From an uncultured virus (IMG/VR IMGVR_UViG_3300025099_000013) (lineage: Duplodnaviria; Heunggongvirae; Uroviricota; Caudoviricetes): a stretch of 64,000 bases of DNA. The notes below the pieces were generated by a model. It was not told the DNA's origin, ran no database searches, and saw only the letters and a program-made list of their open reading frames with translations. The number at the start of each line of letters is the position of its first letter. Positions within the stretch are counted from its first letter, which is position 1. Position numbers and translations under genes: made by a program. The stretch lies in IMG/VR virus record IMGVR_UViG_3300025099_000013. One strand, 5' to 3'. Positions 12,853 to 51,464 of this stretch are shown here, in pieces.

Positions 12853-15800
12853 ATGACAAGATTTTTAATGCAGTATGATTCGCAAACTCCTTTAGTGAGT
12901 GATAATACTAATCCATTCCCCTCGGATTATGAATTATGGCTTACAGGATATTGGGAAGATTTTACATCATCATTTTGTGAGCCGGAAGCGAGTTCAAATA
13001 AAATGGAACATGAAAAAACACATTTTGGAAATCCAATGAACTCAGAATCAAGACTAAATCCTTATTACAGATTTTCATACATAGATAGGGTAGCGACTTA
13101 TTGGACTAAGAATTACACACTATCAGATTCAAGCGTATTCACTGCTAACAGGTCTAGTGGTATGGTTACTAATGATATGAACCTACTACATAACGAAGGA
13201 ATACACGAGTTTCTTACCATAGACTTAACAAGACTTGGTAAAGGAAGAGCGTATTCTTCTATAATAAATAATGAATACTTAGATAGTCATGCTCATAGTA
13301 ATAGGTATAAATACGCAGGTGATGGTACAACTGAAAGTTATATCAAAGCAAATGCAAGCCACAATGGTACAGGGTCTTATTGGATTGGTAGTGGTCAAAC
13401 AGATGCAAGTTTTGGAAGAGCAGATAAGAAACAATATGTATTTCACAAAGATGCTGGAGTTCCTTCATTATCAATAACAGTAAGTAATGATAAAGTAAGT
13501 GCAATAGCATATAAATTAGACAGTAGCAACGAAACATCAGTATCGGATGTGGATAAAAACCATATTCAATTTACTTCGTCAGTAGTGACTTGTGGAGTAT
13601 TTAGTACGGAAAATGGACTAAGCACTTTACTATCAGCGAGCACATGGGATGCCGAAGATACTAACGCTAATGTTTTAGGTGCTGAAATAAAATCCCCATC
13701 CCGAACACCATTCCTCGCTATTAGGCACACTAAACCCGCATCATTAATTCTTCAAGGTGCTACTACTGCTAACGGAAGTAGCGTATCGGATGACCAAGGA
13801 GACGGTGTATGGTTCTATGGTGGTCATACTAGAGGACTACACCCAGCAACCGTAGGAAATCAAAGCAAACATCTTAGGGTCGGTGATATAGTGCAAGTTG
13901 GAGCCGATAAGCATTGTGTGATACAAGAAATAGACCATAAAAAGAATGCGATAACAAAATTATTTAGCATAACAAATAATGCTTTAGTTGATATAGATAA
14001 ATACAAGCCAACCCATGCTTCTTATATAGGCTCACCTGCTGCACCTACAGCAGTTCCTCTTCGTAAATGGTTTGAGCCTGTTATTGGTTATGATGGAGAC
14101 TTAAATTGCTTTGGAGATGGTGATACATTTCATCTTCGACTCTGCCCGTTAAGTATGGATAATAAAGGATTGCCGGACACAACAAGGGCAAGCCACTACG
14201 CTATACGAGTAGGGTACGACAGAAGCAGAATTGACTGGACTTCAAGGGGCAATAGGTATAACCATATAGGTTCTGACTATAATCCTTCACAATCTATATC
14301 AGCAATAGAGTTTGAATTACAACTAGGCACTATTAATGATGCAGCAGATACATTAGAGCATGGTATGAATGTTGTAAGGTCACAAACATTCCCTAATGCA
14401 ATAAAGGATAATCACAAAGAAGCATTTATCGACTATGACGCAACAAGTACGGTCAGTACCCCAAACTATTCTAATGAGTGGGAACATTGGGCTGATATTG
14501 ATGTGGTATTAGACTTCACTAACCAAAGATATAAGGTCTATCTTGATGGTTACGAAGGAGGTACATTTAGTTTCGAGACTAAACCTTCGGGCGGTGCTTG
14601 GGTGGCATCAGATTTTTACGGTTGGCATATTGACCATGGAGTAACACAGACAACCTTTTCTTCTTCACAAACAAACTCATTTCAAGGTGGTAAATATTGG
14701 GGATTTGAGTCAGAAAAAACAAGAACATACTACCATCTTATAGACAGGGTTGGTTTAATACATGAAATAACACATCCGGTAGGGGATAGTCCTAATGGTA
14801 TATCTTCACTAAGCGACCTAAGTATAGATAAATTAAATATGAGTTTAGAAATAGATGCTTCTAGTTTATTAAGAGTAAATATTATTGACGATGATAATGA
14901 AAGAAAGGTACAGGACATATTAACATCAACACCTTCTGAATGGTCAGTTGCTTTGTTTAGAAATGATATTGACTCAGTATCTTGGTACGGCTATCTTGAT
15001 TCTGTAAGAATTAAACAAGACGCAAGAAGCAGAACCAAAGAAATTGAATTAACGGCTTACGATGCACTAAGTAAAATAGAGTCTTTAATCCCCCATTGGG
15101 AAGTAGGACAGAATGAAGATTTTGGACCTTCGACAGATTATGTGTATAGAAGGCAAGAAGCAGAAATGGTAACTGAGAATTTATTTTTAGGTGCTAGAAG
15201 ATTAATGCGTGGTGCATCAAGTATAGGTATGGACCACCAAACAAGGTCGCTTCACCCATTCGATAGTGATGATGAGATAGGAGCAGTACAAGGAAGGTAC
15301 GGCGCAAGATACGACCAAAGAACAAGATTATTTTCTTCTAACCCAATACAAATGTATTTAGGAGAAGATAAGTTTATGCCTTCTGCCTCTAAAGATTTCT
15401 TCAATAAAGCACAAACAGCAAAAACTTCTAGTAATGCTATTTGGAAACAGTGGAATACGAGCAAAATAATAGGATTCAGTGATGGTTCTTATCACGACCC
15501 ATCATACATAATAGCACACTGTATAGAGCATAATTTAGAAGTGGATGATACGTTTAAGATATACAACGAAGGCTCACTAAATAAAGATGATTCTTCATCC
15601 ACAGGACTAAACCCATTCACTAGAAAAACAACAAGTGAAGATGGTATGACCATTATTGTTAAGAAAATTATAGATGATAACCATTTTGCCTTTACATATA
15701 GCGAAGGTAATATATTCGGATTCGGTAGCACAAACACTGATGGGTGGATTGAAAGCGGCTCAGACACATACCCTGTTAGAGCAGAACCTCCTTCGTGGTG

Positions 15801-18800
15801 GTCTATAATAAGAAGGCCAAGAAATGTAGGTGGTTTAGGAGAAGGAGATAAACAATACTATACTTCAGCAGAAAGTAATAGCGGGGCTTGGGGTTGTCCT
15901 ATGTTTAGCGAGATAAAACATGATGGTGTGAACGTAAGTATTGCTAATGATTATCTTACAGCAATAAAACTAGATGACGCAGATGGGTTAAGAAAGTTTG
16001 ACCCTACATTAAGTGTTAGTTGGTCAGGGTATTTTTCAGAATCAATGTCTACTGCTGGATTGAGCACAACTGACAATATACACGCCTGTGCAGTTGATTA
16101 CATGACCGCTATGTCTTTCGTTAATGAGCAAACTATCAATGACAACTTTGCAGACATAAAAATAGGATTAGCAGATGCGGGAGGTTATACCCAGACTTGG
16201 AAACCTGCTGGTCTAGTACCACTAGAAGCAAAAACTATGAAACAGATACATGACCCACATGGTTTAATAACGGTAGGACCTAGAAGTTGCTTTACCGAAT
16301 CACAAGGGGCAAGTGATACACCACTAGAGTACTTAAACTATAATACATCAAAAGAAAGAGGGCAGACACTTACAGTTATAGATGCTTATACTCGGTATTT
16401 TAGAACACATAATACTTCGGGTGGAGCGACACACGGCGGAGAAGTTATGACATTTCAAGGTACAGAAGATTCGTTCTTAACAATGATGATAAGGGGTAAT
16501 GATATAGACCAAATAGAACCTAATAACTTACCAACAATAGCAAGTTCTGATAATAAAACAAGTTCGGGTTATGGTAAAGAGTTTTCACAAGCAGGTGTTT
16601 TTACGGTCACAAATAAAACCACAGATTCAAGCGGAGATATATTTTCAGGTACTAATACAGCAGTAGCAAGCACACAACATAATCACATGAAGCACGTTAC
16701 GACTGCTGCATCTGTTACTTCCGGCAACGTGGTCACATGGACTATTGGGGCAGCAGCATTAAAATCATTCCCCAACACAGGATGGATTAGAGCATATAAT
16801 ACTGTTAGTGGTAATAGATGGTCTATGTATAAGATAACAGGAAGAGGAACAGACACCCTAATAACAAAGGCCGCAACTTCTTTAGGTATAGGTTATATGC
16901 GAGGACAACACGGAACTTCTAACATCTTAGGAACGCCTACAACTGCCGGAGGACAATACTTAGAACCTTGTGTGTACCCTGTAATATCCACAGCCCAAGC
17001 AATATTTACCCCACCATTAGCAAGACAAGCAAGAAGGAAATATAGAGCAGCACACGCTTCCTATATGCACGATATTGCATCTTCAATGTGGTTTAGAATG
17101 GTCTTTGGTATAATAGAACAACGTGCTTGGGGTACAGATGGACCACCACACTTTTCAACTGCTAGATTCCCTAATAGAAAAGCAGTAATAACTTCAAGCG
17201 GTAATGTAAGTATGTACGGTGATGTAGGACTTACCCCGAATGGCGGCTTAGTAGGAGGACATGATAGGAGGGACCACCAAGCAGCAGCACCGGAAATAGC
17301 AGAGCATCAATATTCGGATTACTTTGTTCTTACAGCAGATTTTGACCCTTCAACAGACAGTGCCATGACATTCAAACCTTATTGTTCAGTACCTATGCTA
17401 GATGAAAACTTTGAGGATGAAAGAAATAAAGATATAACTTTACAAGACCAACTAAATTATGATTACGGTACAGACCCTACTATGTCAATACCTTCAAGGG
17501 CTTGGGTTACTACTGGTAATAAAGGTACTCTAAACAATGGTGGGCTAATATTTGAATTAGATAATATAGATGGTACTTTAGATGTTGGGGCAGCAAGGTC
17601 AGCAAGAATGACAAGTTTTGCCGCAAATAGAGCAGGAAGCCCTATAAGTAATCCTACTTGGAATCACTATGAAATAACAAAAGTAGTTCAAGGGGAAATA
17701 CTAAACACAGGTGGACCTAATTCAGATAATTTACCTTACCCAAATGTAGGTAAGTATGCTAATCTAACTGGTGGATTATGGTTAAAACAATCAAATCACC
17801 CTGCTTGGTTACAGGCGGGTAATGTTAGAAATGGAGAAATATACCAAAAGGCTACTAATGAAAGGTCTAATAGAGATAATATACACAGTGGCAATCCTAG
17901 AGCGTGTGGCTATACTGCTTCGGGGGATTCATATACTACTGGCGGTCAAACAAGAAGCGGACCTTGGTTTGATAATGAAAAGTGGGCTGGATTACAAGCA
18001 GGTGATGTTATATTTGTTGGGAATACACAAGGGGCGGTACAGCAGCCACCAAGCGGTACAACGATGCAGTTTAATAACACTAGCAAAAAGATAGTTATTG
18101 ATAATGAATCGTATGTTAAAGAAAATACAGATAAGTTTAATATGAGAGATTTATATTCTTATAGATGGTACAAAGTATTAGTTGTTACAGGCTACTGGAT
18201 TCTTGTTTATCCCGCAGAAGTAGCAGAACAACAGATAAGGTTAGGCTTTAAGGCCGATGATATTGATAGAGATACAGACAAACTAAAGACTGATAACCCA
18301 TTAGCAGTAACTTATAGTGGAACACCCACTTCTGGTAGTATCAGAAGAGGTTTGACTAACCTAATATATCCCCATGCTCACCCTGTTGGTAAGATGACAG
18401 TAGAAGAAGATATACACCATAAATGGAGGCATAGTGGCTCTAGGTGGTATCACTATAATGTAGGCGTAACTGCTACTGGTGATATTCCGGGTAGTGTTAG
18501 GGGAAGTAGGGGTGTAACTAGCACTGCTACTAGTGGTTGGCATAACCAATTACAAAGAGCAAATGTTGCTGTTGCAGGTGAAAACCAATTCAAGAATAAT
18601 ATATTAAACTATGATGGTCATACTAATTCTAGCCTCGCTTACAACCAATACCCACTAGATACGCAAGGTGGGAATATATGCAAAGTATATGCAGGTGATA
18701 TTACAATAAGTGGAGTAAAGCATTTAACTAAACCCCATACAGCAGGTACGGTAGGGAGATTTAGAAGAATTAAGAATGATTTCAAACACATTTGGTTAAA

Positions 18801-21800
18801 TTGGGCTGACATGAGAAATGATGGCTCAGCAGACGCAGATGGAGGTTATAGACAAGATTCTTGGGGATTACTGTACCCAACAGAGGATAATTACGATGTT
18901 ACTATACTATCATCTGATTCACAAGAAGAATTAATATCACTAAAAATAGGAGCAGACATTGATTTATGGGAATTAGGTAAAACAGACCCATTCACAAGTG
19001 CAGTTTGGTCGGATAACTACACAAATACCATTACAGGTGATATAGTATCTCACCTACATAATTGGGAGTCTAAAGCAGGAGCACCTATTGCGGTTGATTC
19101 AAGTAAGTTTTTCAATCTTAACACCTATGCTAACAACGGGAAAATAGGAGATACCTCTGGTGGCTTAAAAGATATTGGGGAAACTATGTTAGAATCAGCA
19201 GGTGAGCCAGCACTTATGGATAGTTATTGGTGGGAAGCCCCACCGCACCCTTACAATGCTAAATATAGAATACAGTACGAACCAAATTGGAGATTCTTCA
19301 TAAATTATCAGACTAAAATGACATTACCTACTATTACAGATAAGCCCGTACTAATATTAGATTCTTCAAACTATTACAAAGGTAATACATTCCCCGACTA
19401 TTCTAATTATGGTGTTATAGAGCATAAAGAAACTGATGGGGATGATGTTTCTTACTATACTTACAAAACAGGAGGGTCGTTTGTTACAGACTATGATGAA
19501 ATATCCGCATCAGACGCTTCAAGACTATATACTCATTTTGGTTCAAGAAAAGTTGATATTGTTAATGATGAAACATTTGGAGTTTCGTTTGAAAATACTA
19601 TTATAGGCAATAACTCAATCCCTGAGTTAAATAAAGATAACGAACATTCAGTATATAGTAATTGGTCATCACTATATGGTTTATTTGCCCTAATGACAGT
19701 AGATGGATTTGTCGAAACAGCAGGTAATAATACTAAATGGGAACATGATAAAATGAGACTTCTTTGGCAAATGAGCAGAACAAAAACTTGGTTGAAAGGA
19801 AATAATATGCCTTTTAATTACGATATTAATAACGTACCTATAACTTATAGAATGGATAGTACACAATTAGGTGGTACTACCCTTGATAATTACGGTGATG
19901 CTTTAGACGCAAGGGGTAAAACATCCTTAAATATTATCCAAGCAGCAAGTAAGCAATCCGGACCCGGCTCGGCAGGTAATACAACAACATTCTTCTATAT
20001 GGTAGGTAAAGATAATAGGTTTGAGTTTAGACCGTCATACAAACAATCAACTGCACTAACAAGAAGTAATTTTATAAAGTCAAATGTAACTGTAGAAGGT
20101 ACAGGACAGATAACTAACGTAAGGGTTGTGTATAATGGTGGTGCATCGTTTGTGGATTATCCTAAACCAATTTCAGGAGCAGACAATAACTTAAGATGGA
20201 AAACTTTACAAGCATGGAGTATTTCATCCCCTAATCAAGCATTAGTCATGGCTAAATCAGAATACAACAAAAATAAAGAGAAAAACTATACTGTTGATGC
20301 GACTATAATAGGAACAACAGGTTCACATAACCCTATGACTTCCGGCGGTAGGTTTGGTTACATATCCACACCACTAATACAATCAATGCCCGATGGATTA
20401 CATACTTACTCGACATTATTCCCACATAGTAATTTAGGTGGTGCGATTATAGGTGGGAGACAAAATGCTATGGATGGTAATCTCGATGGTATAATATATT
20501 CCGGCAGAACACAATCACAAGGAGCAAGTAACCAAACAAATACACATGGAGATGCTTGGGATGAAATATACATAGGAAGTAAAAGGGATTGGGAATATTT
20601 AGAAGAAGGTGTTGGTTATCATGGCTCTGGTTCTTGTAATGTCTATGATATGCACGACACAAATCACACAGGACAATATGCTCCATACGGTGTAAATTGT
20701 ATAGAAAAGGCACTTCAAATAGTCCACATCCCTAAGAATGCTCCTAAAGTGAGTACAAGCACAGGTAATGAATTAAGAGTATTTATAACACACGCTTCAA
20801 ATACTGCTAACGAAACACATTATAGAATATGGTTAATAGATGCACCATTTGATGCACAGAGAACTATCAATACTACCTTAGCACCTAGTAATATTGTATA
20901 TCTTGATGTAAAAGGTAATGGGTTTTACGAAATAGCATTCCCACAATCATACGGGGGCGATTCAACAAGCAGAATCATAGTATCATTTAACGCAGAATAT
21001 TGTGATGACTTACTAAAATATAGAAGTAATAATAGTATATCGAGTAAATCTAACAAAGGTAATAGAATATCAGCAATACCCGATGTGGCAACATCAGTAT
21101 TAGACCTTTCGCATGGCAATCCTGTTAATGAAGGTTCAGCCTTCCCGCTAGGATTATCCCTATATTACAGACCACTAGGTAGTGAAGATTCACAAGGCCG
21201 TCAAGGACCACTATGGCATCTTAGACCAAGAGCTCTATACTATGCTTCTAGGATTGAAATAGTTGATGACTTTGTGTATAGACCTGCAAGAACAATAACA
21301 TATACAGATGCTAACCTAAACATAAGTAGTGATAATCTAATGATAAATAGGGTAGTATGGAATGAAAGACCATATAACAAGTGCGAGGTAAAATTAGTAT
21401 TACAGAAAAATGAATCGCAATCATTACTAAACCCACTATTACCTGCACCTAAACCTATACAAGATATAGGCGGTCAAGATGGGAATGAAGTTGGTGATGA
21501 AGGAGGTCATGGTTCTGATGTTGATGATGACAGAAAAGAAGGTTATGGGGATTATGACGCATCTATAATTACAAACAGGGGTATTGGTAAAAACCATAAT
21601 GTTGTTAGTGGGTACTCGTCAAGACATATAAAACAAAGTAACATAGAAGGTATGCCTGACCAATTCACAGACAGTATAGGTTCTCTAAAGACTAAATCAA
21701 AAATAAGTATAAACAGACTAAGCAGAGGTTCTCTAAATAGTATTAGAGGTAAGACAGATTTAGATTTGAAACTTGGTGGTAAAACAGGCTTATTAGGATT

Positions 21801-22554
21801 TGACAAGAAGGGTGATACTAACTCAAAAAGAGTTAAGGGTATTGAAGGAATAGGTAATTCTAATAAGATAGAAAGCGGTAGTGCTATGATAACTTCCGAA
21901 GGCTTTACACTACCCGGAGTGAGCCACATAGCAGAAACAGGGGTTGTTGATAAATCAGATTATCACGAAGGCTCTGTTACTGTAACAGTACCTATTGATA
22001 GTATAGACGATAGAATAATGGTACAGTTATATGTATTAGCACCCAAAACAGGTGGTGGTGAAACGTACTCTATAAATTGTCTTGTTGAGTGTATAGATAG
22101 TGGTCACGTAAGCGAAAAGATTCTTAATATTAAATCTTCTGATGAAACACAAAGACTTATGGTATTCAACGGTGATAAATTATTAGGGGCTAATATTGCA
22201 GGTAATAAAATTAAAATTACTGTTGGAAGAGTTCCCGGAGGTTCATTACTTACTGTAAAGGATGGGAAAGATAGTTCTCCATTTGGTTCATTATTAATAA
22301 AAGGTGTTAATGTAATATTTAATACTAGAGAAAGAGCATCAATAGGTAATTTATCTTCTAAGAGCAAATTAACAACAGGGGATAATACAAAAGGATTCTT
22401 AAGTGGAACAAAAGATTCTATTAATACAAAAACTTCTAGCGGCACATACGATTCTAGCGGTAATATTATTTACAAATCAGACGGTAGGGCATCAAGTGAT
22501 AAATTAAGAAAAACTTCGGGTGATGCTGATAGTTATTCTGAGGATGGAGCGTGA
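12853..22554 (+). CDS. Giant (3233-aa) tail-tip/baseplate-hub and receptor-binding protein
   Basis: The only gene after the tape measure. Has hub-like segments (WYGYLDSV...IELTAYDAL; QITNVRVVY) and a LamG-like segment (WADIDVVLDF...YKVYLDG). Confidence 0.7.
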   Translation: MTRFLMQYDSQTPLVSDNTNPFPSDYELWLTGYWEDFTSSFCEPEASSNKMEHEKTHFGNPMNSESRLNPYYRFSYIDRVATYWTKNYTLSDSSVFTANRSSGMVTNDMNLLHNEGIHEFLTIDLTRLGKGRAYSSIINNEYLDSHAHSNRYKYAGDGTTESYIKANASHNGTGSYWIGSGQTDASFGRADKKQYVFHKDAGVPSLSITVSNDKVSAIAYKLDSSNETSVSDVDKNHIQFTSSVVTCGVFSTENGLSTLLSASTWDAEDTNANVLGAEIKSPSRTPFLAIRHTKPASLILQGATTANGSSVSDDQGDGVWFYGGHTRGLHPATVGNQSKHLRVGDIVQVGADKHCVIQEIDHKKNAITKLFSITNNALVDIDKYKPTHASYIGSPAAPTAVPLRKWFEPVIGYDGDLNCFGDGDTFHLRLCPLSMDNKGLPDTTRASHYAIRVGYDRSRIDWTSRGNRYNHIGSDYNPSQSISAIEFELQLGTINDAADTLEHGMNVVRSQTFPNAIKDNHKEAFIDYDATSTVSTPNYSNEWEHWADIDVVLDFTNQRYKVYLDGYEGGTFSFETKPSGGAWVASDFYGWHIDHGVTQTTFSSSQTNSFQGGKYWGFESEKTRTYYHLIDRVGLIHEITHPVGDSPNGISSLSDLSIDKLNMSLEIDASSLLRVNIIDDDNERKVQDILTSTPSEWSVALFRNDIDSVSWYGYLDSVRIKQDARSRTKEIELTAYDALSKIESLIPHWEVGQNEDFGPSTDYVYRRQEAEMVTENLFLGARRLMRGASSIGMDHQTRSLHPFDSDDEIGAVQGRYGARYDQRTRLFSSNPIQMYLGEDKFMPSASKDFFNKAQTAKTSSNAIWKQWNTSKIIGFSDGSYHDPSYIIAHCIEHNLEVDDTFKIYNEGSLNKDDSSSTGLNPFTRKTTSEDGMTIIVKKIIDDNHFAFTYSEGNIFGFGSTNTDGWIESGSDTYPVRAEPPSWWSIIRRPRNVGGLGEGDKQYYTSAESNSGAWGCPMFSEIKHDGVNVSIANDYLTAIKLDDADGLRKFDPTLSVSWSGYFSESMSTAGLSTTDNIHACAVDYMTAMSFVNEQTINDNFADIKIGLADAGGYTQTWKPAGLVPLEAKTMKQIHDPHGLITVGPRSCFTESQGASDTPLEYLNYNTSKERGQTLTVIDAYTRYFRTHNTSGGATHGGEVMTFQGTEDSFLTMMIRGNDIDQIEPNNLPTIASSDNKTSSGYGKEFSQAGVFTVTNKTTDSSGDIFSGTNTAVASTQHNHMKHVTTAASVTSGNVVTWTIGAAALKSFPNTGWIRAYNTVSGNRWSMYKITGRGTDTLITKAATSLGIGYMRGQHGTSNILGTPTTAGGQYLEPCVYPVISTAQAIFTPPLARQARRKYRAAHASYMHDIASSMWFRMVFGIIEQRAWGTDGPPHFSTARFPNRKAVITSSGNVSMYGDVGLTPNGGLVGGHDRRDHQAAAPEIAEHQYSDYFVLTADFDPSTDSAMTFKPYCSVPMLDENFEDERNKDITLQDQLNYDYGTDPTMSIPSRAWVTTGNKGTLNNGGLIFELDNIDGTLDVGAARSARMTSFAANRAGSPISNPTWNHYEITKVVQGEILNTGGPNSDNLPYPNVGKYANLTGGLWLKQSNHPAWLQAGNVRNGEIYQKATNERSNRDNIHSGNPRACGYTASGDSYTTGGQTRSGPWFDNEKWAGLQAGDVIFVGNTQGAVQQPPSGTTMQFNNTSKKIVIDNESYVKENTDKFNMRDLYSYRWYKVLVVTGYWILVYPAEVAEQQIRLGFKADDIDRDTDKLKTDNPLAVTYSGTPTSGSIRRGLTNLIYPHAHPVGKMTVEEDIHHKWRHSGSRWYHYNVGVTATGDIPGSVRGSRGVTSTATSGWHNQLQRANVAVAGENQFKNNILNYDGHTNSSLAYNQYPLDTQGGNICKVYAGDITISGVKHLTKPHTAGTVGRFRRIKNDFKHIWLNWADMRNDGSADADGGYRQDSWGLLYPTEDNYDVTILSSDSQEELISLKIGADIDLWELGKTDPFTSAVWSDNYTNTITGDIVSHLHNWESKAGAPIAVDSSKFFNLNTYANNGKIGDTSGGLKDIGETMLESAGEPALMDSYWWEAPPHPYNAKYRIQYEPNWRFFINYQTKMTLPTITDKPVLILDSSNYYKGNTFPDYSNYGVIEHKETDGDDVSYYTYKTGGSFVTDYDEISASDASRLYTHFGSRKVDIVNDETFGVSFENTIIGNNSIPELNKDNEHSVYSNWSSLYGLFALMTVDGFVETAGNNTKWEHDKMRLLWQMSRTKTWLKGNNMPFNYDINNVPITYRMDSTQLGGTTLDNYGDALDARGKTSLNIIQAASKQSGPGSAGNTTTFFYMVGKDNRFEFRPSYKQSTALTRSNFIKSNVTVEGTGQITNVRVVYNGGASFVDYPKPISGADNNLRWKTLQAWSISSPNQALVMAKSEYNKNKEKNYTVDATIIGTTGSHNPMTSGGRFGYISTPLIQSMPDGLHTYSTLFPHSNLGGAIIGGRQNAMDGNLDGIIYSGRTQSQGASNQTNTHGDAWDEIYIGSKRDWEYLEEGVGYHGSGSCNVYDMHDTNHTGQYAPYGVNCIEKALQIVHIPKNAPKVSTSTGNELRVFITHASNTANETHYRIWLIDAPFDAQRTINTTLAPSNIVYLDVKGNGFYEIAFPQSYGGDSTSRIIVSFNAEYCDDLLKYRSNNSISSKSNKGNRISAIPDVATSVLDLSHGNPVNEGSAFPLGLSLYYRPLGSEDSQGRQGPLWHLRPRALYYASRIEIVDDFVYRPARTITYTDANLNISSDNLMINRVVWNERPYNKCEVKLVLQKNESQSLLNPLLPAPKPIQDIGGQDGNEVGDEGGHGSDVDDDRKEGYGDYDASIITNRGIGKNHNVVSGYSSRHIKQSNIEGMPDQFTDSIGSLKTKSKISINRLSRGSLNSIRGKTDLDLKLGGKTGLLGFDKKGDTNSKRVKGIEGIGNSNKIESGSAMITSEGFTLPGVSHIAETGVVDKSDYHEGSVTVTVPIDSIDDRIMVQLYVLAPKTGGGETYSINCLVECIDSGHVSEKILNIKSSDETQRLMVFNGDKLLGANIAGNKIKITVGRVPGGSLLTVKDGKDSSPFGSLLIKGVNVIFNTRERASIGNLSSKSKLTTGDNTKGFLSGTKDSINTKTSSGTYDSSGNIIYKSDGRASSDKLRKTSGDADSYSEDGA

Positions 22555-33533: not shown

Positions 33534-34790
33534 TTAATCCTCCCATGATTCAGCATCGACTGATACTGCTTCGATAGAATCGACGCACCACCAACCATGT
33601 GTTGTAAATCTCATTTCGTCATCTCTAGATTTGTATGTCTGCCCGACCACTAGAACCTGCGAACCAATCCCGAAGGTTAGTAAGTGCTCATGTGCCTTTG
33701 GTATGACTAAATCAATTCCCGGAGCAGTTGATGTAATATCTAAGTCTCCTAGTGTTACAATATATCCACCACGTTCTCTTGGGTCTATATGAACAACTTC
33801 ACCAACGCAACCGACCCATTGGTCCCACCAATCTTTATCGTCTTTGTGGTCTGTATGATATTGTTCTAGTGTTGCGAAAGAAGGTAGTAATCCGCCGTTA
33901 GGGTATAGACCGTTTAGCATATCCGGCACGATACCTGCTGGACCAGATTCTGTCATAGTCATAGGTGGTGCTGAGAATATTCCCGCCACTTCTTCATTAG
34001 GTACAAGGTCGCTTAATTCTTTAGCATAAGCAACTTTACCATCCCTACCTGGTCTCAATCCTATCGAACCGGGTAGAAAACTAGCGTACTGAGTATCAGC
34101 CATTTTACCGCTTGACCGTACACTAATAAGTGAAGGTTCATCGTTAGTACCAACCTTTCGACCTAAGAAGGATGATGTTCTTTCTTTCTCAGACATAGGG
34201 CGTGGTGCTCCATACTTGAAGTTAGCATCACCGCTTGGGAAAGTCGGTGTTGTGTTATTCCAAATTAGATAGAAAGCATCTCCGTTTGGTAATTCTTTGT
34301 GGATTCTAGGTAACTCTGTTACATCTGATTCATCTATTTCATTAGTCATAGTACCTCTAGATATAATACCACTATTAGCATAGCGAGTGTAACCCGCACC
34401 ACTAGCCTCGTAATATACTAAAGCACCATTTCTAATTTGAGCCTGTGTTAAAGCATCTTCAACATTTCCTCTTGAAGTTAATTCACGTTCTGTTTTATTG
34501 TAAGCAATTTGAGCCCAATCTTTGTAAGGTGGCACACGGATAAACATTCCCTCGAATTGTTCTAATCCACTCTTTTTTAGGCGTTCACTAATCATCTTTA
34601 ATTGACGACCAGCAACTCTAGCAGATAAGACAGTTTGTGTTGTCTCATCTTTGCCGCTAGAAGACCATGATGCTGTATTCTCAGCATGGACTTCCGCCAT
34701 TTTCAATCGCAACCTTTCTTCTCCAACCCCCAAGTTAGACGCAAGGTCTCTTATTATTTCATCTGTATTTATCGTTTTGTTATCGGACAC
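33534..34790 (-). CDS. Putative ssDNA-binding protein (RPA-like, OB folds)
   Basis: C-terminal OB pattern (GEVVHI...VTLGD...GSQVLVVG), acidic tail and replisome context. Confidence 0.55.
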   Translation of the reverse strand: MSDNKTINTDEIIRDLASNLGVGEERLRLKMAEVHAENTASWSSSGKDETTQTVLSARVAGRQLKMISERLKKSGLEQFEGMFIRVPPYKDWAQIAYNKTERELTSRGNVEDALTQAQIRNGALVYYEASGAGYTRYANSGIISRGTMTNEIDESDVTELPRIHKELPNGDAFYLIWNNTTPTFPSGDANFKYGAPRPMSEKERTSSFLGRKVGTNDEPSLISVRSSGKMADTQYASFLPGSIGLRPGRDGKVAYAKELSDLVPNEEVAGIFSAPPMTMTESGPAGIVPDMLNGLYPNGGLLPSFATLEQYHTDHKDDKDWWDQWVGCVGEVVHIDPRERGGYIVTLGDLDITSTAPGIDLVIPKAHEHLLTFGIGSQVLVVGQTYKSRDDEMRFTTHGWWCVDSIEAVSVDAESWED

Positions 34791-47935: not shown

Positions 47936-48561
47936 TCTTCTTCGCTCCGTAATTCATCATAGAACTCTGCTAACTCCCTTCGCTCTTCATCTATACTCAG
48001 AAGGATAAGGGCAACTCTTTCAATATCAGAGGGCTTAAGATATGTAACTCCATTATCACAATTCTCTGGCAATACTTTAGAGCAAGCCAAAGTCATGAGT
48101 TTCATAGCATCATAGGCCTCCATTCGGGCTTTCTCATGCTTAGACCACATAGCATATGGGTACATGGCTCCACCTTTCCTGTCTTGAGTAACCTCAGAAC
48201 GTGTTTTGAATGATTTCCACTCGCCTGTCTCTGGTATAGCGACCACATATCTATGATGAGCGGGTACTGTATCAAATATCTCGGACTTACGGAAACCTTG
48301 CTCGTTAGTTGCTGAACCCCACTCTTCTTTTTGCTCTTGACTCCATGCTTTATCTGATGGGTCATAGAGTTTATAGAAATAGTATTTAGTTTGAGTTATC
48401 ACATTTTCTTGTTGTCGTATGAGATAATCCATCGGTTGTGATGGACCATAATCTCCTAAATCATCTTCTGCTGTCTCTTTATTCATCCGGCTAACCTCTT
48501 TCACTACCTTCTGTGCATAATCACATATAAACATTTCTTGGTCTTGAGTTAGTGTTACCAC
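47932..48561 (-). CDS. Hypothetical protein
   Basis: 209-aa coupled ORF. Confidence 0.6.
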   Translation of the reverse strand: MVTLTQDQEMFICDYAQKVVKEVSRMNKETAEDDLGDYGPSQPMDYLIRQQENVITQTKYYFYKLYDPSDKAWSQEQKEEWGSATNEQGFRKSEIFDTVPAHHRYVVAIPETGEWKSFKTRSEVTQDRKGGAMYPYAMWSKHEKARMEAYDAMKLMTLACSKVLPENCDNGVTYLKPSDIERVALILLSIDEERRELAEFYDELRSEEE

Positions 48562-49040
48562 TCAACAGTTGCTTCGTCGTCGTCATCACTTTGAGCCCAA
48601 ACATGATAATGTTGATGTCGTGCTATAAAGCCTCCGAGTTTGGAAATAACTCCAATAGCATAAGCCTCACAATGAATACATCTCACCATAGCAATAGGCT
48701 CATTATATGTCGTAACACCATCCTCTATTGTAATAATCTCTGATTTACCTACGTCGTTGAGGTGATAGACTTTTTGTTGTCGCATCTCGCTATCAACAAT
48801 AACCACGTCGGGTTCTAGGAAATCTCTTTCTGATTCGGTCAAGATACGCATTTCGTCGGTTGTGATAATAGGTCTGGTGTAGGTCTTATTTTCCTTCGCC
48901 ACCTCTATACCACACGGAGCACAATAGAAATTGTCGTGTGCATATAACTCAATATCATCATCACAATCCTCCTTATTACATCCCAATCTCATTTTATCGC
49001 CTCTTTTCTGTATAGCCTCACGCTTATCATATACTACCAT
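48555..49040 (-). CDS. Zn-finger hypothetical protein
   Basis: C....C, CAPC, CIHC...H..H; probable start is ATG 48992 after a GAGGCGA RBS. Confidence 0.6.
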   Translation of the reverse strand: MVVYDKREAIQKRGDKMRLGCNKEDCDDDIELYAHDNFYCAPCGIEVAKENKTYTRPIITTDEMRILTESERDFLEPDVVIVDSEMRQQKVYHLNDVGKSEIITIEDGVTTYNEPIAMVRCIHCEAYAIGVISKLGGFIARHQHYHVWAQSDDDDEATVEW

Positions 49041-49270
49041 TGTATTACCTAGTTATTAATGGTTTTCATCTCTTGAGATATCTAGCGGGAGAACTACCTA
49101 CCGTACCTTTTTCCGAATATCCAGAGACATGAGTATCTTTACGCCTACTCTTAAAAGAGTAGAATGAAAATCGGTAGGAACTCAAGAGTCAGCATTGTTT
49201 ATATAGTATAATCTTTTAATGGTAGTATGTTGAAACGGGAGGAAACGAAACCCCGAGGAGGTGATAAGTT

Positions 49271-49750
49271 ATGAGTAAGAAAACAGAATCAAAAGAGACT
49301 GAGAGTAAAGTTACAGATGAGACCGAAGCAGTACCTCTTCCATCATGGAATAAAGGAGATACCGCAACACATGGTCATTCTGAGTATGACTTATTCGGAG
49401 TAAACGGCCTTTGGCGAGAAAAAGGGTGCAACGAGATTGGTGGTATGAAGGTGAGAATCTATCTAACAGCAAGAGCCGACGCACCTATCTGTAATCGACC
49501 TGACAAGCATACAGTCGTTATCACCGGAGTTCACGAAAGTGGTAAAACAGACCTAAATGTGAGCAAACTTCAGAAGCATGGAGCAGCCAACCGTAAGGAG
49601 GCACTCAAATTAGCGAGGCACCCTGCAACTTGGAGCAAGAAAGCACAAGTCATAGTCGATAAAATTGCTGAGGCCAAAGCGAAAGCCGAGGAAGAAGCAA
49701 ATGCAGAGACAGAGCCAAAAGATTCTACCAAAGAAACGGTAGAGGCTTAG
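49271..49750 (+). CDS. Early hypothetical protein
   Basis: Boxed promoter at 49181 and a strong GGAGGTGA RBS. Confidence 0.75.
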   Translation: MSKKTESKETESKVTDETEAVPLPSWNKGDTATHGHSEYDLFGVNGLWREKGCNEIGGMKVRIYLTARADAPICNRPDKHTVVITGVHESGKTDLNVSKLQKHGAANRKEALKLARHPATWSKKAQVIVDKIAEAKAKAEEEANAETEPKDSTKETVEA

Positions 49751-49754
49751 GCAA

Positions 49755-50165
49755 GACCTCTATTGGACTAGACCCTAACACAAAAACTCAAAGATACTTT
49801 GAGTATCCCCTAGTCCATAAGGGTCATCCCTGTGTGGTGTGGCTCCGCCCGCCACAAGAGCAGGAGACAGGCTGACTAAAGCCGAGGAAGTTAGGGCTGA
49901 CCTTTTCGTGTTGGCAGAGCCCTAACATGGCGGAGCAACATTAAGGAGGCGAGTCTACATAAACAGGTGGTAGACCAAACCGTAACCGAGCCGCACACTA
50001 ACCTCTTCTTGAGTAAAAGAGCCACCCGTTCATTGAAAGAGACAGAAATGTAACGAGGAAGTGAGACTAAAACAGGCGGTAACAAGTCGGATAAGCCTCC
50101 ACCTAATACTCCTTTTGGGAGGTCAAGGAGAAATGCTGGGTAGGCAAACTGCAACCGACCTTCCA
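49755..50165 (+). ncRNA. Putative ~410-nt structured non-coding RNA with two pseudoknots
   Basis: Dense nested helices with G-U pairs on the + strand and two loop-distal complementarities; no credible ORF. Confidence 0.7.
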
Positions 50166-50273
50166 CCCTTCTTCTCTCATGGGGCGGGAGGCAGAGTACT
50201 CACCCCTTTTACTTATAGGAGAGAATGACGATATCTCTACCGCCAAACTTTTACGTTTGGTACTCAATGGTAC

Positions 50274-51464
50274 TCAATAATGACCCGGTTCGCCATAGCA
50301 ACTCCAACATTCTCTATCGCTACCCTTCATCCCGCTACCACCATACTGTGCTGTCGTATAGCAGGAGCATTGTCTGCATACCTCTTCTGTGCTCATACCT
50401 GCAAATAATGGTTGACCTATTAAATCAACTCCACCAACAGGGAAATCTCCATGCTCTGTACCTTTACGCTCCTCTCCACATCTCATACAAGTATAATACT
50501 CGTATGTAGGATGAACAGGGGCTCCGGGCATCTCTTGCCAGCCTCTTTCGTAATATGTTCTCACGGCTAATCTATTCTGACCATCTTGATTACAGTCGAA
50601 ACAAGTCGCATACTTATTGCCACTCTTACCTCTACCGTAAATAGCATCCACTATCTGCTCATCCTCTATCATCTTCCACTCTTTAGGTTTCTCTAACTTA
50701 TGTGTTTTGAGACAATAGTGTTTGAGTTCATGGGTTTTCCAATCGTCGTTTTGCGCTGGTCTTATATCGTTTCTCTCCGACTTAATCATAACATTTCTCA
50801 AGAAATATACGACTTTATCAAAGGCCTCTATCTTAGTATCTCGAACATACCTATACCTGCTCCAATTTTCGTAATAGTCCTCTTCAGCATCGAATCGCTC
50901 AGTGTTAGCAAGTGCTCTGCTAACTGCTCTGCTAAGACCAAACTTAATCTCTTTTTCTGCTTTCCTCTCAATCCTTCTTAGTACCTCCGACGAATATGTA
51001 GTCGCCATATAATCCTCTAAATCCACCTCTTTTCGATATTCTTCTCTGAATACTAGAGTTCCATATGGACCACCAAGCGGTGTATGACCACGACTTGGCA
51101 TATCTTTTACTCTTGCTAAAAATGACTCGTATCTTACGACCCAAGCCTTTTCATCCTCACACTCATGCTTATCTGAGATGAAATTATTATCTCCATCATT
51201 GTTCTCGCATATTTCGTATAGTTCTCTTAATATAGACCAACCTTCGTTAAATAAGTCGAATACATGAGCCCACTTTTCTTTGAACTCTTCATTGAATGCG
51301 ACCACCATAGTGTGTTCTCTATCCCAAATCTCTTGTTTTATGAGTGCTAGGAACTCTTCCACATTATCATGACCAACTTGAAGCAACTCATCCGACACAT
51401 CTTTTATAGCGAGTGCCATAGCCTCTTTATCTGAGTAAGGTATTAATCCTCTTTCATTTGACAT
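50274..51464 (-). CDS. Hypothetical protein with C-terminal Zn fingers
   Basis: 396 aa; GGGGGTGA RBS; CFDC, CMRC, CRQC, CWSC. Confidence 0.7.
   Translation of the reverse strand: MSNERGLIPYSDKEAMALAIKDVSDELLQVGHDNVEEFLALIKQEIWDREHTMVVAFNEEFKEKWAHVFDLFNEGWSILRELYEICENNDGDNNFISDKHECEDEKAWVVRYESFLARVKDMPSRGHTPLGGPYGTLVFREEYRKEVDLEDYMATTYSSEVLRRIERKAEKEIKFGLSRAVSRALANTERFDAEEDYYENWSRYRYVRDTKIEAFDKVVYFLRNVMIKSERNDIRPAQNDDWKTHELKHYCLKTHKLEKPKEWKMIEDEQIVDAIYGRGKSGNKYATCFDCNQDGQNRLAVRTYYERGWQEMPGAPVHPTYEYYTCMRCGEERKGTEHGDFPVGGVDLIGQPLFAGMSTEEVCRQCSCYTTAQYGGSGMKGSDRECWSCYGEPGHY

Follow-up and report, generated by a model that had tools for sequence, protein, structure and literature searches.

Only a small number of catalogued structured RNAs come from viruses that infect uncultured marine microbes, and archaeal viruses contribute very few. 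Among the closest described systems, GOLLD, ROOL, HEARO and IMES-1 to -4 came, like the RNA studied here, from the comparative analysis of uncultured viral or marine DNA. The phi29-type packaging RNA (pRNA) is a single-copy viral RNA organized around a three-way junction with a closing 5′/3′ helix, and its fold is kept while its sequence diverges. In this study, we analysed a stretch of about 460 nt (49751 to ~50210, + strand) in IMGVR_UViG_3300025099_000013, a 64,000-nt DNA sequence from an uncultured virus (Caudoviricetes), hereafter called the window. Comparison with related viruses makes it very probable that this stretch is a real, conserved structured RNA that is so far uncatalogued. It is composed, from 5′ to 3′, of a variable hairpin, a pseudoknot (PK1), a three-way-junction (3WJ) core, a second pseudoknot (PK2) and a last hairpin with a U-run after it.

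Results

A conserved fold with two pseudoknots

An earlier note on the window had proposed a single non-coding RNA of ~410 nt at this place. All the pairings that it listed can be read directly from the sequence: TGGACTAG (49764–71) with CTAGTCCA (49810–17), enclosing ACTCAAAG/CTTTGAGT; TGTGGTG (49833–39) with CGCCACA (49850–56), the loop GCTCCGCC (49842–49) being complementary to GGCGGAGC (49929–36); GTTAGGGCT (49890–98) with AGCCCTAAC (49918–26); GTCTAC (49953–58) with GTAGAC (49970–75); CGTTCATT with AATGTAACG; and ACCTA (50101–05) with TGGGT (50137–41) together with CTCCTT (50109–14) with AAGGAG (50125–30), the loop TGGGAGGTC (50116–24) being complementary to GACCTTCCA (50157–65).

Relatives of this stretch were gathered through loci encoding the family of the 159-aa protein whose gene lies directly upstream. 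Six distinct downstream sequences were obtained, from the window, L004, L001, L005 (= L010), L009 and L007 (= L008), with L006 excluded as it ends too soon after the gene. The five long homologues (window, L004, L001, L005 and L009) were aligned with MAFFT (alignment A3), and 51 pairs were named. In A3, 97.2% of 250 cells are paired, and nine of the 51 pairs have changed on both sides. Indeed, none of 500 shuffles reached the covariation score, and sliding the partners by one to three columns lowered the pairing to 37–50%, with zero or one two-sided change.

Both pseudoknots proposed by the earlier note are kept, with compensatory changes, in five to six related metagenomic viruses. PK1 (49829–49936, + strand), of the H-type, combines an outer stem (49829–32/49861–64), an inner stem (49833–39/49850–56) and a helix formed by the loop 49842–49 with 49929–36. 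In A3, the inner stem is 100% paired, with three of its seven pairs changed on both sides, and the loop helix is 100% paired. The letters of loop and partner are GCTCCGCC/GGCGGAGC for the window and GCTCCGTC/GACGGAGC for L001 and L009; L007 shows the same design in wholly different letters, with the stem GCGTGTG/CACACGC and the loop TGGACCGGC complementary to GCCGGTCCA over 9 bp. PK1 lies 3′ of the stop codon of the 159-aa gene in all six distinct loci, L007 included. PK2 (50101–50165, + strand) comprises a lower stem (50101–05/50137–41), an upper stem (50109–14/50125–30) and a helix formed by the loop 50116–24 with 50157–65. Its upper stem is 100% paired and its loop helix 93.3% paired in A3, the latter with two pairs changed on both sides. 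Here the loop pairs with its partner as GGGAGGTC/GACCTTCC in the window, as GGTGGGTC/GACCCACC in L001 and as GGTAGGTC/GACCTACC in L005 and L009. Across PK1 and PK2, stems and loop helices are 93–100% paired with one to three two-sided changes per helix, as expected of H-type pseudoknots. Since the letters of loop and partner differ between relatives yet stay complementary, both pseudoknots are real.

The folding strand can also be told from the pairs. G–U pairs occupy 20 cells in A3 and 15 in the alignment of the core described below; they would be A–C mismatches on the other strand, so that the strand that folds is the gene-sense (+) strand. The stretch has a G+C content of 51%, versus 40% for the whole window, and is purine-rich on the + strand. 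It is non-coding, each of the six frames holding at least one stop in all six homologues.

Other parts of the stretch vary between lineages. Every relative (L004, L001, L005, L009 and L007) has a hairpin at the place of the 5′ hairpin P0 (49764–49817, + strand), of unrelated sequence and size. Hairpins 49764–49817, 49890–49926 and that of CGTTCATT are lineage-specific and unconserved in sequence, the relatives having other hairpins or none. Lineage-specific hairpins, namely GGCT/AGCC (49870–83) and 49890–49926, are also what the long loop of PK1 carries.

The 3WJ core

A degenerate DNA pattern made from the best-conserved block was used to search viral loci and returned ten of them, seven being new and six distinct (L015 = L024). 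They share one order of elements: helix P1, GAG, hairpin P2, CCAAACC with three to five further letters, P3, P4 of widely varying length, a 3′-side bulge of 6 nt, A-rich letters and the 3′ strand of P1. In the window, this core spans 49945–50100 (+ strand), with P1 at 49945–50/50095–100, P2 at 49954–58/49970–74, P3 at 49986–89/50087–90 and P4 at 49990–94/50076–80 around a variable interior (49995–50075). The letters between the helices are GAG (J1/2, 49951–53), CCAAACCGUAA (J2/3, 49975–85), the bulge AACAAG (50081–86) and AUAA (J3/1, 50091–94).

A covariance model of 104 positions (R1), seeded with five other viral loci and with the window left out, matches 12 instances from ten viral loci, each over positions 1–104 of 104. 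The window is among them (49943–50104, 40.3 bits, E 2e-9) and belongs to the core family on this basis, and R1 matches nothing beyond the 12 instances in 109,347 bases, rest of the window included. In the alignment of the 12 instances (A6, fitted to R1), 94.4% of 234 cells are paired and nine of the 20 pairs have changed on both sides; none of 500 shuffles reached the covariation score, and slid partners were 24–54% paired. A MAFFT alignment of the 12 cores (A4) misplaced the 3′ half and was left unused.

Two features of the RNA as it was first drawn have to be revised in the light of these comparisons. The outermost GCCT/AGGC of the ‘long stem’ clashes with P1, which covaries in the 12 instances (GGAGGC/GCCTCC, CTAGGC/GCCTAG, GTTGGC/GCCAAC, GGTGGC/GCCACC and CGAGGC/GCCTCG). 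Likewise, the single ~410-nt unit gives way to a composite, in which the central ~155 nt are a separate 3WJ motif that occurs alone elsewhere, down to ~76 nt in the shortest core (first copy of L021).

The core exists in two types that differ jointly in P2 loop, J2/3 and bulge. Type 1 has the P2 loop ACAUUYGGG and the bulge GAGCCG (GAGCAG in L005), and type 2, found in the window, L004, L001 and the second L021 copy, has the P2 loop AUAAACAGGUG and the bulge AACAAG. A loop–loop complementarity (UUUGG/CCAAA) is present in type 1 only and lost in type 2. Both types meet in tandem in L021 (stored − strand, ~1237–1560), a minimal type-1 copy coming first and then a type-2 copy whose P4 carries a large insert. 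Each copy is flanked by near-identical ends of the upstream gene and start regions of the downstream C5-methylase gene, which looks like a heteroallelic duplication or a recombination scar. Besides, a hairpin sub-module (GGGUCG-GAGAGAGAUUAGA...-CGCCC) lies 3′ of P1 in L020 (1493–1700, + strand) and inside P4 of the second L021 copy (1237–1407, − strand); from this difference in place, peripheral modules appear to move between positions.

Several resemblances were considered and set aside. GGAGG (49945–49) and CCUCC (50096–100) could be taken for a Shine–Dalgarno/anti-Shine–Dalgarno couple, but both are P1 strands that covary in other viruses. The similarity of GUAACAAG..GGAU..CCUCC to the 16S rRNA 3′ end was dropped, these letters not being conserved in L005 and L009. 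A K-turn, a bulge–helix–bulge, a group II domain V (GAGCCGU) and a tRNA-like element do not fit the helix layout.

Distribution and neighbouring genes

Of ten viral records scanned with R1, nine gave one reported match each, and three of these nine are rated 100% complete. One of the loci, L021 (from record G008), holds the two tandem copies described above. The nearest record, G001 (31 kb, 43% complete), has no match to the region or to R1. Genes upstream of the core vary (DUF932, AAA_24-like or unassigned), as does what lies downstream: an RFC-like clamp loader, a C5 methylase, a pyrimidine-dimer glycosylase, or 400–500 nt free of genes. The core is always on the same strand as its neighbour genes.

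No 159-aa gene lies near the core in the six distinct new loci. The 159-aa family is also absent from G005 and G008, both 100% complete and core-bearing, in a search that did find the positive control, G002. As the core is present in viruses without the 159-aa gene, the upstream protein cannot be its obligate partner. The possible partnership with this protein, suggested earlier, is credible for PK1 only, which travels with the gene in six of six distinct loci.

In prokaryotes (one genome for each of 185,579 species), a first pattern gave no match and a second gave a single one, in a coding region of a G+C-rich metagenome-assembled genome; it was judged a chance match, R1 having no match there. 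Among isolated phages (INPHARED, 50,697 records), neither the window RNA nor a type-1 core had a DNA match.

Two of the loci, L017 (1590–2020, + strand) and L023 (stored − strand, ~1000–1415), have 400–500 nt free of genes after the core, with blocks conserved between both. These blocks include words resembling archaeal C/D boxes (AUGAUGA ... CUGA) and a closing hairpin, with no Rfam match, and the region may be a further RNA.

Searches of RNA catalogues and of the literature

Rfam 15 (4,227 models, cmscan) gave no match at gathering threshold over the whole window, its models including RNase P, SRP, tmRNA, 6S, introns, ribozymes, riboswitches, GOLLD/ROOL/HEARO/IMES and pRNA. With E up to 10, only four sub-threshold matches were listed for 48900–50500 (15.9–20.4 bits versus thresholds of 32–81), and the six related loci gave a single chance snoRNA match. 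ARAGORN detected no tRNA or tmRNA in the window or in 11 related loci. The view of a structured, non-coding viral RNA with two pseudoknots outside known families, put forward by the earlier note together with this type of search, is borne out by conservation, by the folding of the + strand and by the absence of any Rfam, tRNA or tmRNA match.

Full-text literature searches, including one on magroviruses, returned no description of the core motif. A screen of IMG/VR intergenic regions (Fremin, Bhatt, Kyrpides 2023, PMC10690425) reported 8,495 unnamed candidate RNAs of DNA viruses, 29–151 nt long and from at least three unique regions, among which the core may figure. Sections of that paper describe no motif of the core's kind, and one of its large data files contains none of three IMG/VR sample numbers (from contig ids) and none of the motif words.

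The 159-aa gene and transcription of the region

The 159-aa gene (49271–49750, + strand) is of unassigned function. Its product bears a tail rich in Lys, Glu and Ala, shows the conserved motifs THGHS, REKGC and RHP..WS, and has no match in Pfam, PHROGs, NCBIfam, PDB profiles or the ESM Atlas and a poor AlphaFold model (predicted local distance difference test, pLDDT, of 40). The family is tiny, with six proteins at E up to 0.001 in 5.8e9 clusters and two clusters among 1.84e9 representatives, and searches of viral contigs with its distant relatives P0011 and P0008 as queries gave nothing. The window holds no second copy according to tblastn. In record G002, a second, weak match to the 159-aa profile (34282–34674, − strand, E 1.5e-6) falls in a 152-aa open frame, separated by ~6.5 kb from the main gene, that may be a remote paralogue.

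Upstream of the gene lies a promoter-like A/T box (49198–49212, + strand), made of TTTATATA (49198–205) and an overlapping-adjacent TATAAT (49207–12). A similar box stands at the equivalent place in L001, and a sigma-70 scan of the window does not list the one at 49198–49212; this box may be the promoter of the 159-aa gene. The 230-nt leader of the gene (49041–49270, + strand) shares blocks with L001, namely AACTCAAGAGT, and CGGGAGGA..CGAAACCCCGAGGAGGTGA before the start codon, and may hold a regulatory structure of its own.

Contigs from four RNA libraries (three studies) fall on 49227–49979, beginning at 49227–49249, and two contig records from two studies bridge the 159-aa stop codon, reaching more than 31 nt beyond it in either direction. 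Such contigs cannot show strand, ends or level, and RNA libraries may contain DNA, but the bridging contigs agree with a presumed co-transcription of gene and RNA from the A/T box. No RNA-library contig lies on 48268–49205 or 50010–50947. Contigs stop near 49950–49980, from which nothing is drawn because a conserved core common to co-occurring viruses would break assemblies. In run X14, a 378-nt RNA-library contig (record 7) matches the window only over P1/P2 (49948–49979), its remainder being that of a type-2 variant resembling the second L021 copy; that library therefore contained another core-bearing virus.

At its 3′ end, the stretch closes with a conserved tail and a terminator-like hairpin (50166–50210, + strand), including CCACC, UUCUCUC and GGGGCGG, with GGGG (50181–84) facing CCCC (50203–06) before TTTT (50207–10). 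Terminator-like sites on the + strand were listed by a simple sequence scan at the 3′ end of the RNA in L005 and L001. An alternative-hairpin ‘switch’ in this tail and a pairing of GGGGCGG with the PK1 loop were seen by eye, are lost in L007 and are not claimed.

The carrier virus

The region 49751–50273 is free of genes, the 159-aa open reading frame (ORF) ending at 49750 and the next gene, which encodes a 396-aa Cys-rich protein (50274–51464, − strand) with no Pfam or PHROG match, being convergent; it bounds the RNA and lies outside it. A convergent neighbour of the 396-aa type is also found in L001, L004 and L005. The carrier is a tailed virus, with genes for large terminase (TerL), tape measure and tail tube in the window. 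Further genes encode a family-B DNA polymerase (PolB), an SNF2-type helicase, ArdC, an RFC-like ATPase, and AAA_24, ERCC4 and PD-(D/E)XK nucleases. Right after the tape-measure gene, a 3,233-aa ORF (12853–22554, + strand) without Pfam match presumably encodes a giant tail or host-recognition protein.

The best tblastn matches of PolB are haloarchaeal tailed viruses (21–24% identity), those of TerL are Bacteroides phages (23.7%), and the sequencing runs that contain the stretch are marine. Magrovirus-like archaeal tailed viruses, as presented in PMC5434244, combine tailed structural genes with PolB, RFC, clamp, AEP primase, MCM and RadA-like genes and a halovirus affinity. From this part of the comparison, it is plausible that the carrier is a magrovirus-like archaeal virus; in Pfam-type scans of the window proteins, MCM, AEP primase and sliding clamp were not seen, and the helicase is SNF2-like.

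Discussion

A module that may be recognized in trans

One match per record, next to genes that change, suggests a role of importance to the virus as such rather than to any one gene. As a functional reading, we propose that the core is an autonomous 3WJ module recognized in trans, situated in the window within the 3′ region of a composite transcript, and we give this proposal, built from sequence comparison, a probability of slightly under one half (about 0.48). The 159-aa gene and the ~460 nt 3′ of it would form a single + strand transcription unit amid − strand replication genes. Its untranslated part would fold as independent modules, and the terminal hairpin and U-run would end the transcript some 65 nt short of the convergent gene. 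The 3WJ core would be the functional heart, a self-contained domain closed by P1, at whose junction the invariant unpaired GAG, CCAAACC, 6-nt bulge and AUAA most likely build a tertiary pocket or surface. This pocket would be recognized by a partner supplied in trans, either a host or a viral factor. The core would then work alike beside any gene, and be delivered in the window lineage as the 3′ part of an mRNA, with PK1, PK2 and the terminal hairpin acting as lineage-specific clamps for folding and stability.

A number of observations weigh against this proposal. Folding energies, from a model in which pseudoknots are absent, are no better than those of shuffled sequences: by the energy criterion of the earlier note, the minimum free energy of the whole RNA is borderline on the + strand (z −1.66, five of 100 shuffles folding as well), with z −0.97 on the − strand and −0.6 to −1.8 for single modules. 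Because the pseudoknots are outside the energy model, these weak values neither support nor refute the RNA, and it is the comparison with relatives, not energy, that decides its reality. This comparison draws its covariation from few (5–12) related sequences, and the fitting of A6 to R1 favours the pairing count. L007 keeps the 159-aa gene and PK1 without an R1 match; the modules can thus separate, and the stretch may not be ‘one functional RNA’. The terminator-like hairpin of the window is weak, being a 4+3-bp interrupted hairpin with TTTT recognized by eye and absent from the scan list. Finally, a gene starts ~25–60 nt after the core in three to four of the six other contexts, which fits a cis-acting leader equally well.

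Such a leader would be a riboswitch or similar cis-regulator, in which the 3WJ binds a small ligand or a protein as an aptamer does, with the closing of P1 setting the translation of the next gene. The core does have an aptamer-like layout, in which P1 closes a junction of invariant letters and P4 varies freely; its two types differ jointly in P2 loop, J2/3 and bulge, as specificity variants of riboswitches do; genes start ~25–60 nt after it in L015, L021 and L022; and L021 carries a tandem pair of unlike types. Against this explanation, the downstream products are unrelated (RFC-like, C5 methylase and glycosylase), the window lineage has no downstream + strand gene, L017 and L023 have 400–500 nt without genes after the core, a conserved alternative pairing with the 3′ strand of P1 could not be shown, and Rfam returns no riboswitch. 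In the window lineage, P1 would set termination versus read-through, the read-through product being an antisense RNA to the 396-aa gene; the place of the core directly upstream of a terminator-like site is in keeping with this variant. Leader and variant together, as one explanation, are held to be unlikely. Quite unlikely is a self-cleaving ribozyme or processing signal, through which the core would cut, or direct the cutting of, a polycistronic transcript between cistrons. A ribozyme was, with a scaffold and a defence decoy, among the candidate roles named by the earlier note. The small size of the junction motif, its ~25 unpaired letters that hardly vary and its tolerance of change in the peripheral stems would suit such a role, as would the sense orientation between operon genes, with P1 ~7–17 nt after the upstream stop in four of the six non-window loci, and the tandem copies at one locus. 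Known self-cleaving classes have a similar distribution in viral metagenomes. Yet no Rfam ribozyme matches even at E up to 10, and the P1–GAG–P2–10 nt–P3/P4–AUAA–P1 topology is not known from the cores of hammerhead, HDV-like or twister ribozymes. Moreover, the 378-nt RNA-library contig of the related variant crosses the 5′ edge of the core, and the existence of two sequence types would be unusual for a catalytic core.

For PK1 alone, a partnership with the 159-aa protein is credible, as a ribonucleoprotein or as an autoregulatory operator, and as an explanation of the RNA it is improbable. Gene and RNA are adjacent in all six distinct loci with enough downstream sequence, PK1 follows the stop codon in each of them, even in L007 where no core was detected, and the protein has a charged Lys/Glu/Ala tail. 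This has to be set against the six distinct loci with a core and no such gene, the absence of the family from two 100%-complete core-bearing records, and a protein without recognizable RNA-binding domain or usable model. It is still far less probable that a DNA-level element (such as an origin, a site of packaging or of recombination, or a host RNA gene copied at an attachment site) has been misread as RNA. One match per record, very conserved blocks and a place in the replication gene module would be compatible with such an element, but G–U pairs are frequent and confined to one strand (15 and 20 cells), the helices covary while sequences differ, no true copy was found among 185,579 prokaryote species with one genome each, and no integrase was noticed nearby.

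Beyond the proposal of a module recognized in trans, a bolder and rather unlikely idea is that the ~76-nt core represents a new class of catalytic or ligand-sensing RNA of marine, probably archaeal, tailed viruses, either a self-cleaving ribozyme or a riboswitch aptamer with two types of specificity. The 460-nt form would then be an elaboration whose two pseudoknots couple the core to 3′-end formation and let it control the convergent gene by antisense. If the core were indeed a ribozyme or a sensor, it would add a new class, in a region of the virosphere where experimental RNA biology is almost absent; were it a module for stability or processing, it would still mark transcript architecture in these genomes. 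In any case, what is gained is a compact, strongly covarying 3WJ motif with clear boundaries, whose two natural types and 76-nt minimal form are amenable to synthesis and to tests of cleavage, ligand binding and protein binding, together with a larger natural version having two covariation-backed pseudoknots.

Comparison with known systems

In kind, the orphan phage and marine RNAs come closest to this RNA, whereas in layout phi29 pRNA and the P1-closed 3WJ aptamers do. It has in common with GOLLD, ROOL, HEARO and the IMES RNAs a conserved multi-helix fold with pseudoknots, a function unassigned at discovery and a G+C content above that of its surroundings. In contrast, cmscan gives no match to any of them (the best, ‘IMES-1’, reaching 16.6 bits against a threshold of 81 bits), and the RNA is far smaller than GOLLD or ROOL and does not lie beside tRNAs. 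The likeness to phi29 pRNA resides in a P1-closed three-way junction within a viral RNA, and in a diverging sequence with a kept fold. However, there is no cmscan match to pRNA either, the present RNA belongs to a replication module and not to the vicinity of packaging genes or of a genome end, and the loop–loop complementarity (UUUGG with CCAAA) is here confined to type 1. From 3WJ riboswitch aptamers (e.g. the purine class), the core is set apart by the lack of an Rfam riboswitch match and of a coherent set of regulated genes, and by its situation in the window, where it belongs to a 3′ untranslated region and is followed by a terminator-like hairpin and a convergent gene. It nonetheless resembles these aptamers in its P1-closed junction with invariant junction letters, in its variable distal stems and in the existence of sequence subtypes that alter the junction letters together.

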